Shown piece by piece: positions 18,001-21,000 of a stretch of DNA of 64,000 nt. Source of the stretch: Escherichia coli (GTDB taxonomy: Bacteria; Pseudomonadota; Gammaproteobacteria; Enterobacterales; Enterobacteriaceae); the NCBI RefSeq assembly GCF_045037415.1, contig NZ_CP173438.1. One strand, given 5' to 3'. Each line of letters starts with the position of its first letter. Position 1 is the stretch's first letter. The position numbers are program-made.

Positions 18001-21000
18001 ATGCCGATGTTATTAGCCGGATTCGCGCCACGCTCTATTCCGGCGGCAGTCAGATTCAGGGGGCGCAGGCATTAGAGGTGTTGCGTGGTCTGGTGCTCGC
18101 GCCAGTGATGCACGCGGTGCAGGCGGGGGTATCTGAACGGTTGCTGGCTTTGCTTAACGGCGGCGCGGTGGCGGAAGTGAAAAGCGCCGTCATTGCCAAT
18201 GCACAGTCGAAGGTATTGATTGTGGAGTTTCATCAGCCGATTGCCGCCAGAGTGCTGGAAGAGGCGCAGAAACTCGGTGCCTTGCCTTACCCGGTTGGTG
18301 CAGAGTCGAAATATGAAATCCCGCCGCTCTTTTATCGACTTTCCGGAACGTTTCGCCAGGCGAATCCGCAGTTAGAACATTGCGCGATTCGCATTAACCC
18401 AAATCGCGGCGGTGAAGAGACGATATTGCGGATCTTGCGTGAAAGTATTGCCAGCATTTAATCGTTGTAAACGATATTTTCGAAAAGAATGCAGAAACAA
18501 ATACGCCCTCGGATAACTCCGAGGGCGTCAGGCAATTAAACCGGCGTTAGCCGATTTCTGTCAGAGACTTACTGTGCAGTCGGACCGCAACCGCCAATGA
18601 TTTTAGAAATAGAAATTGCCGGGTGCAGCAGGTAGTCGTAAGAGCAGTTCTTATCACGGTTTTCAATATGACCAGTACATGCAGTTAACGTAGCCAGTAC
18701 TGCGCCTACCAGTGCAACTTTAATAAATTTGTTCATTTACATTCCCTATGTATTATATATTAATTAATATTCATTGATTATATGAATATAAGCAGACTGC
18801 TCATTAAGAACGATACAGGAATATTCAATTAGCGTCAGTGAGCGATTGGCTTAATTTTGTAAGTTGCTGTAACGGTGAATATAACCCATTAGCAGACAAT
18901 ATTTATTAAGGGGTTATATTTTTATCTGCTGAATATATAAAGAGAGTTGTAAACGAAAAAGGCCAGACTTCTCTGGCCCTGGTTAAATTAATGGTTAGAG
19001 AACCAGTTCAATTTATCGCGCAGGCCAACAACCCGACCAATAATAATTAGCGATGGACTGTTCATTTGCTGCGCCAGTTCGCCCAGCTGCGTGAGCGTAC
19101 CGTCAATCACGCGCTGCGTGACTGCCGTTCCGTTTTCGACAATTGCTACCGGCATTTCACCAGGCATACCGTATTCAATCAGCTTTTGCTGAATAGTTGC
19201 AGCCTGATTCAGCCCCATATAAAACACCAGCGTCTGTTTTTCTGCCGCCAGGTTTTCCCAGTCCAGCTCGCCACCGGTTTTTAAGTGTCCAGTAATTAAG
19301 CGTACGCTCTGGGCATAATCGCGATGCGTGAGCGGAATACCCGAATAGGCAGAGCAACCAGAGGCTGCGGTAATACCCGGAACCACCGAGAATGGAATAC
19401 CCGCGTTGCACAGTGTTTCCAGCTCTTCGCCACCACGGCCAAAAATAAACGGATCGCCGCCTTTCAGCCGCACCACGCGTTTGCCTTTTTGCGCTTCCCG
19501 CAGCAGGATCTGGTTAATCTCTTCCTGCGGTACGCAGTGGTATCCCGCGCGTTTGCCGACGAAAACGCGATCAGCATCGCGGCGTACCAGATTCATAATA
19601 TCGTCAGAAACCAGACGGTCGTAGACCACCACATCTGCCTGCTGAATTTGTTGCAGACCTTTCAGTGTCAGCAGCCCGGCATCGCCCGGACCTGCACCAA
19701 CCAGCACCACTTCACCGCGATGATCGAGCGGTTCATTGATTAACTGTTCGGTGGTTTCAGTAATGGCTTTCTGATCGTTGTTGGCCAGCGACTGCGCCAG
19801 GCGGTCATTAACGAACAATTTCTCCCAGAAACGGCGACGCTCACCCATCGTGGCGAACTGTTGTTTCACTCGCCCGCGTAATTGCCCGGCGTATTTCGCT
19901 ACCTGGCCCAGATGTAACGGCAGCAGTGATTCGAGTTTTTCGCGCAACAGGCGCGCCAGAACCGGAGAGGTGCCGCCAGAGGAAACCGCTACCATGAGCG
20001 GCGAGCGGTCAATAATCGACGGCATAATAAAGCTGGCGGCTTTCGGCGCATCGACCACGTTACAGAAGATGCGACGAGCTTCAGCGGCTTCGCTGACGCG
20101 CTGGTTAAGCGCGTCATCATCCGTCGCTGCAATCGCCAGCCAGCAGGTGTCGAGAAGGCTTTCATCAAATGGCCCTTCGACGAGGGTTAACATGCCTGCA
20201 TCTGCCCATGCGGTGAACTGTGGAATAAACGCTAATGCATTCACCGTTAAGCGAGCGCCTGCGTCTAACAGCAACCTTGCTTTGCGTTCCGCGACATCAC
20301 CACCGCCGACAATCAGACAGTCGCGATCGCGTAATTGGCAAAATATAGGCAAATGATCCACGTAAAAACCCCTTAATAATTAACCGGCAGCCGTTTCAGT
20401 TTGATTAAATTTGTCCGCAACCGGACGATTCGCTTTCGGCGTAGCATACCAATAACCCAATCCCATGAATACGGCACCCGATAAAGTATTACCCAGCGTC
20501 ACCCACAGCAGGTTATGACCAATACCCGCCAGCGTGTAGGCTTCGCTGTGGTTGCCGAACCAGGAGAGGGCGAACAGCGTCATGTTAGCGATGGAGTGCT
20601 CGTAGCCGGACGCGATAAATGCCAGCAAACACCACCAGATAGCGATAAATTTCGCCGCCCCTTCAGTGCGCAGCGCCATCCAGATTGCCAGGCAAACCAG
20701 CCAGTTACACAATGCACCTTTGAAGAACAGTACCATTGCCGGTGCAGTGGTTTTAGCCAGCGCGACGGAGTGAACGATGCTGGTATCGACCGGCAGCAGG
20801 CTACCGCCACCCCAGCTATAGAGCATGGCAACAAAGACGGAACCGACCAGGTTACCCAGCCAGGTTTGCGGCAGGATTGCCCACATTTGCCCGTGGCTGA
20901 TAGTGCCCGCTTTCACTCCAAAGGTGAGGAACATGGTGTGTCCGGTGAACAGTTCAGAACCGGCGATAATCACCAGCGTTAAGGCGATACCAAAGGTCGC

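Follow-up and report, generated by a model that had tools for sequence, protein, structure and literature searches.

The question raised by this locus is whether an operon was lost from it or had never been there. In Escherichia coli K-12 MG1655 the genes run in the order cysG, yhfL, frlA, frlB, frlC, frlD, frlR, yhfS, and the first-pass annotation, which gave this order in agreement with the annotation of MG1655, pointed out that the frlABCDR genes are absent between yhfS and yhfL in the 64-kb stretch of DNA analysed here (64,000 nucleotides, hereafter the window). The reading that we favour, and consider likely, is that the window carries the frl-negative yhfL-yhfS allele of ST131 and other B2 strains, and that, of the two alleles of an ancient polymorphism, this would be the older and not the product of a deletion. 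The entire window is collinear with K-12, and the order php-yhfU-yhfT-yhfS-yhfL-cysG-nirC agrees with the RefSeq annotation of a genome that is 100% identical to it. The features of the interval are as follows.

9885..10889, plus strand: trpS, 97.7% identical to K-12 in nucleotides and 99.7% in amino acids, collinear, the conserved outer anchor of the trpS-yhfL interval
11051..17364, plus strand: yhfZ, yhfY, yhfX, yhfW, php, yhfU and yhfT, which with yhfS form a variable module of eight genes (NCBIfam matches for YhfW at 13583-14809 and Php at 14806-15684)
17376..18461, plus strand: yhfS, an ORF of 361 aa encoding a PLP-dependent aminotransferase-fold protein, the last gene before the junction
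18462..18492, no strand: spacer specific to frl-less genomes; 18462 still aligns to K-12, and the 30 bp at 18463-18492 are without K-12 counterpart
18493..18528, minus strand: element resembling an intrinsic terminator of yhfL, with a GC-rich stem, also kept beside yhfL in frl-positive genomes
18569..18736, minus strand: yhfL, encoding a DUF4223 lipoprotein of 55 aa, identical in protein sequence to K-12 YhfL
18988..20361, minus strand: cysG, siroheme synthase (NCBIfam NF007922, 630 bits), the conserved anchor on the yhfL side

The convergent genes yhfS and yhfL stand tail to tail. The former ends in TAA at 18459-18461, the stop codon of the latter (complement) occupies 18569-18571, and the 107-bp gap between the two genes (18462-18568) has exactly the coordinates first given for it. 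An ORF scan found no ORF of 40 aa or more wholly inside the gap, and the two genes are therefore directly adjacent. The gap contains a perfect inverted repeat at 18503-18528 (11-bp stem with 8 GC pairs, 4-nt loop), which starts 40 nt past the yhfL stop; on the minus strand the T-rich tail ATTTGTTTCT (18502-18493) comes next. Stem-loop and T-tract match the pattern of an intrinsic (rho-independent) terminator, predicted to be that of yhfL. The 107-nt gap folds with z-scores of -4.5 and -4.8 on the two strands. The first-pass annotation had described a single hairpin, which holds for the perfect 11-bp one, but a second and weak hairpin of 5 bp at 18462-18474, directly after the yhfS stop, had been overlooked. 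A search of the 64-kb window with Rfam returned no family at the gathering threshold.

When the window is aligned to K-12 around the junction, the alignment breaks at 18462 (K-12 3504934) and restarts at 18493 (K-12 3499691), so that 5,242 bp in K-12 (3499692-3504933) stand against 30 bp in the window. Neither the gap nor any other part of the 64 kb has similarity to Frl proteins or frl DNA (best tblastn E = 0.04), which confirms the absence of frl from between the two genes and disposes of the possibility, raised at first pass, that the genes lie elsewhere in the window. The junction was found to carry no IS remnant, direct repeat (the short ones that had been suggested as worth looking for included), terminal inverted repeats, target-site duplication, integrase or tRNA gene; the only repeat at this site is the terminator hairpin. 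Between trpS and yhfZ K-12 has approximately 130 extra bp (3512487-3512615), REP/BIME-like, that are absent from the window at 10907-10909.

Many O25b:H4-ST131 genomes, EC958, JJ1886 and JJ1887 among them, are 100% identical to the window from 8000 to 30000. ST131 is, by established typing, taken here to belong to phylogroup B2, and judged by this identity over 22 kb the strain is an ST131-type, phylogroup B2 E. coli and, as first supposed, not K-12. In one ST131 strain, 5506, ISEc23 is found within the compared 22-kb stretch.

Among complete E. coli genomes the contiguous yhfS-yhfL junction is present in 2107/5426 and frlA-D in 3300/5426, the latter always on the chromosome, never on a plasmid and with a median of one copy, in line with the first description of frl as a variable insert at this junction. 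The two classes add up to 5407/5426, which fits mutual exclusivity of frl and the contiguous junction. The non-complementary remainder includes other states, e.g., E. coli A30, isolated from a horse, in which IS1A has taken the place of everything from trpS to cysG (L010 8248-8945) and yhfL, frl and the yhf cluster are gone. A30 is how a genuine IS-mediated loss at the trpS-cysG locus looks, and it differs from the junction in the window. In strain 2020S05-235 an IS1 is inserted within the 1.2 kb around an frl-less junction. These counts bear on the idea that frl was relocated elsewhere in the source genome or that the junction is an assembly artefact. The source genome was inspected directly within the 64 kb only, which leaves some room for this idea, but it is hardly credible in view of the mutual exclusivity, the chromosomal and mostly single-copy frl genes, a distant-mode frlB search of all 5426 genomes that matched 3299 and found no diverged frlB copy in frl-less genomes, and a junction that is identical in hundreds of independently finished ST131 genomes.

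The junction has the same form far beyond ST131. In five frl-less E. coli genomes taken from across the identity range (L002 and L005-L008) the flanks are up to 8% divergent from the window, and all five have the same junction and 30-bp spacer. Six frl-less E. coli haplotypes keep the spacer, as do E. albertii (L012) and L025, a divergent lineage labelled 'E. coli' whose identity to the 5426 E. coli genomes never exceeds 91.5%, and it is also present in SMS-3-5. Relatives were surveyed with YhfL as query against one genome per bacterial species, which gave at least 39 loci onto which the K-12 proteins were then mapped; E. fergusonii, E. marmotae and E. ruysiae are not among the matches listed. 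In E. albertii and L025 yhfL directly adjoins yhfS, with a spacer homologous to that of the window, and the same adjacency is found, among the matches listed, in Citrobacter werkmanii, Citrobacter sp. FP75, Superficieibacter electus, Buttiauxella agrestis and Enterobacter sp. ENT03. Many other genera among the matches listed have cysG-yhfL-trpS with neither frl nor yhfZ-yhfS, and in none of the matches listed from outside Escherichia does frl separate yhfL from yhfS. Because the same junction and spacer occur in E. albertii and L025, and yhfL adjoins yhfS in other genera, the empty site is probably the older allele and would predate E. coli instead of having arisen by deletion, as argued by parsimony and the shared spacer. 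If so, no scar or IS is to be expected at the junction.

The wording of the first-pass annotation, according to which about 5 kb is missing with no scar visible, implied that the B2 lineage had deleted frl from a K-12-like, frl-positive ancestor. The part of that statement that concerns the lack of an IS or scar stands, and the polarity is probably wrong. That E. coli descends from an frl-positive ancestor is conceivable, both alleles being old (frl is carried by E69, see below), and the hexamer TTAAAT, present at both ends of the K-12 insert, could in principle mediate a microhomology deletion. The 30-bp spacer, however, lacks a significant counterpart in frl-positive alleles: the 37-nt spacer including the stop-codon region aligned to the left end of the K-12 segment no better than shuffled sequences did (semi-global alignment, p = 0.34, 0.22), and a deletion could not regenerate it. 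The spacer is moreover shared with E. albertii and L025, which makes its independent creation by deletion in each impossible, and one junction is common to all sampled frl-less haplotypes. The TTAAAT motif was rejected as a target-site duplication or microhomology on the same alignment and because it is imperfect (TTAATT) in O157:H7 and E69; a match of this kind is expected by chance in AT-rich DNA. Altogether a deletion in B2 appears very improbable.

An empty site that is old does not make the frl-positive allele young. The left junction of the frl segment is common to K-12, 042, O157:H7 and E69, and the right junction, at the yhfS stop, to K-12, 042 and E69; with this one invariant junction structure the frl allele appears to have had a single origin. 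E69 is a divergent Escherichia lineage that matches none of the 5426 complete E. coli genomes at more than 94.4% identity, which places it outside E. coli sensu stricto. Between E69 and K-12 the frl genes are 91-96% identical, about as much as the flanks, and judging from its presence in E69 the frl-positive allele, too, is old, older than E. coli sensu stricto. Base composition was considered as a clue to the origin of frl and was uninformative, the segment having 51-59% GC and being not clearly unlike its flanks.

Outside Escherichia the nearest FrlB proteins are found in Serratia (84%) and Sodalis (83%), followed by Paenibacillus and clostridia. The genomic context of frl differs in Serratia. 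In Sodalis sp. C49 frlABCDR (L057 6603-12604) lies directly beside trpS-gph-rpe-dam-damX, the neighbourhood that it has on the E. coli chromosome, with nucleotide identities to E. coli of 71.5% for frl and 74% for the trpS orthologue. The position next to trpS reflects either an old association with the locus or a recurrent hotspot; it gives a hint that frl may have been linked to this locus since before the Enterobacteriaceae arose. As the divergence of the Sodalis genes matches that of trpS, it is conceivable that frl has been inherited vertically at this locus for even longer and was lost many times. Upstream of frlA, K-12 (L001 2813-2837) and Sodalis (L057 6412-6436) share a 25-nt block, CATCATATGTTGTTATATTCATCAT, at 100% identity; it is nearly identical in Serratia too, the surrounding intergenic DNA being otherwise unalignable. 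The block was ruled out as the FrlR operator, as the published operator, GTCATGTTAC, is distinct and located further downstream; it is probably promoter sequence.

The gene that borders the junction is unusually divergent. Identity between window and K-12, about 97.5% in the background, is down to 90-91% in 17501-18500. For yhfS itself the values are 90.9% in nucleotides and 95.9% in amino acids, with dN/dS 0.05 and dS 0.39, four times that of the neighbouring genes (0.05-0.11). Within the cluster yhfX (12419-13582) has a dS of 0.22 and the highest dN/dS of the region, 0.16. Identity to K-12 also dips in chiA, to 92.4% at 49001-49500, where there is a 9-bp in-frame indel at 49281; this gene also has internal repeats, at 48715-48887 and 49083-49190.

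A divergence peak at the junction would fit a second route to an frl-less B2, in which B2 and F strains lost frl secondarily by importing an frl-negative yhfS-yhfL segment from another Escherichia lineage through homologous recombination; the empty allele would then be ancestral in origin and its presence in B2 a re-acquisition. The high dS of yhfS relative to its flanking genes agrees with such an import, as does the observation that yhfS divergence within E. coli is as deep as that to the cryptic lineages E69 and L025, and that O145:H28 and O157:H7, which form one serogroup cluster, carry different alleles. On the other hand the yhfS of the window has no particularly close match among the sampled outgroup alleles (L025 89.5%, E69 88.5% and E. 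albertii 84.4%). The peak is real, but it was discarded as a signature of the indel, since yhfS is hyperdiverse between all strains, with pairwise nucleotide identities of 88-95% among the sampled E. coli whatever their frl state. We regard the import as unlikely, though less so than a deletion.

The favoured reading, an old empty allele alongside an old frl allele, has to account for the distribution of the two, which was compared with phylogroup in reference strains and lineages only, phylogroup D being represented by 042. The phylogroups given are those to which we take the strains to belong.

ST131 and IHE3034 (B2): frl absent
SMS-3-5 and IAI39 (F): frl absent
O145:H28 (E): frl absent
K-12 (A): frl present
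042 (D): frl present
O157:H7 (E): frl present

The frl segment is not the only part of the interval that varies. O157:H7 has the order trpS-frlRDCBA-yhfL-cysG, without the entire eight-gene yhfZ-yhfS cluster (7.7 kb in K-12); in O157:H7 strain 644-PT8 frlR is located 129 bp from trpS (L009 3777-3907) and frlD, which has an internal stop, carries a pseudogene annotation. The trpS-yhfL interval thus consists of two independently variable modules, frl and yhfZ-yhfS, in at least four locus states.

With one invariant junction structure per allele, each allele appears to have arisen once. In the alternative allele, that of K-12, 042 and O157:H7, a block of 5.2 kb takes the place of the 30-bp spacer; with the frlA promoter region, frlABCD, frlR and REP/box-C-like repeats, it confers uptake and catabolism of fructoselysine and psicoselysine. 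The mosaic pattern suggests that the alleles then probably passed from lineage to lineage through homologous recombination within the conserved flanks, and such exchange would lead to their present distribution. It is tempting to extend this to the whole trpS-yhfL interval and to speculate that it is an ancient trans-species polymorphism, in which the frlABCDR and yhfZ-yhfS modules, each of single origin, are shuffled by flank recombination between species and phylogroups, the deep synonymous divergence of yhfS under strong purifying selection being the footprint. We offer this wider proposal tentatively and consider it possible rather than probable.

The absence of frl in B2 has already been published, and in this respect the window presents an ordinary, known polymorphism. 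B2 strains were reported to be without the frl operon and the fructoselysine transporter, and 0-3% of B2 metabolic models grow on fructoselysine (Fang et al., 2018, PMC5996543). A 2025 preprint calls the absence of frl a 'hallmark of B2 strains' and credits the earlier observation to Monk et al. (bioRxiv 10.1101/2025.09.14.675865). The function of K-12 frlABCDR in fructoselysine and psicoselysine utilisation is attributed to Wiame et al. (2002) in passages of PMC5996543 and PMC3505186 that cite it. From gene content and this literature the strain is predicted to be unable to use fructoselysine and psicoselysine, which are dietary Amadori products; this trait already serves to separate B2/ExPEC from other E. 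coli in metabolic models. The junction is of little importance beyond typing, where its empty state agrees with the B2/ST131 identity of the window. What is added here is modest and concerns polarity and structure, i.e., that the empty site is probably the older one and is shared with E. albertii, that the frl allele, to judge from E69, also predates E. coli sensu stricto, and that yhfZ-yhfS is a second variable module.

Compared with known loci, the window resembles O157:H7 in having the same trpS-yhfL interval and the same yhfL terminator, and differs from it in that O157:H7 carries frl and is without the yhfZ-yhfS cluster that the window has. With the arrangement cysG-yhfL-yhfS...yhfZ-trpS of E. 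albertii, Citrobacter werkmanii and Buttiauxella agrestis it shares the gene order and the tail-to-tail orientation of yhfL and yhfS, and with E. albertii additionally the sequence of the spacer; the differences are divergence at the level of species or genus and, in the more distant genera, an unrelated terminator and spacer. The K-12 frlABCDR locus has the flanking genes and the yhfL terminator in common with the window, but contains the 5,242-bp segment with the frlA promoter region, frlA-D, frlR and REP and box-C-like repeats, and its flanks are only 90-94% identical to the window within 1 kb of the junction. The B2 strain IHE3034 (ST95) is closer, with 99.3% identity over a 1.2-kb junction query and the same gene order, gap and hairpin. 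In the B2 frl-negative locus of the ST131 strains EC958 and JJ1886 sequence, gene order, 107-bp gap and hairpin are all the same, and the window is an instance of that allele.
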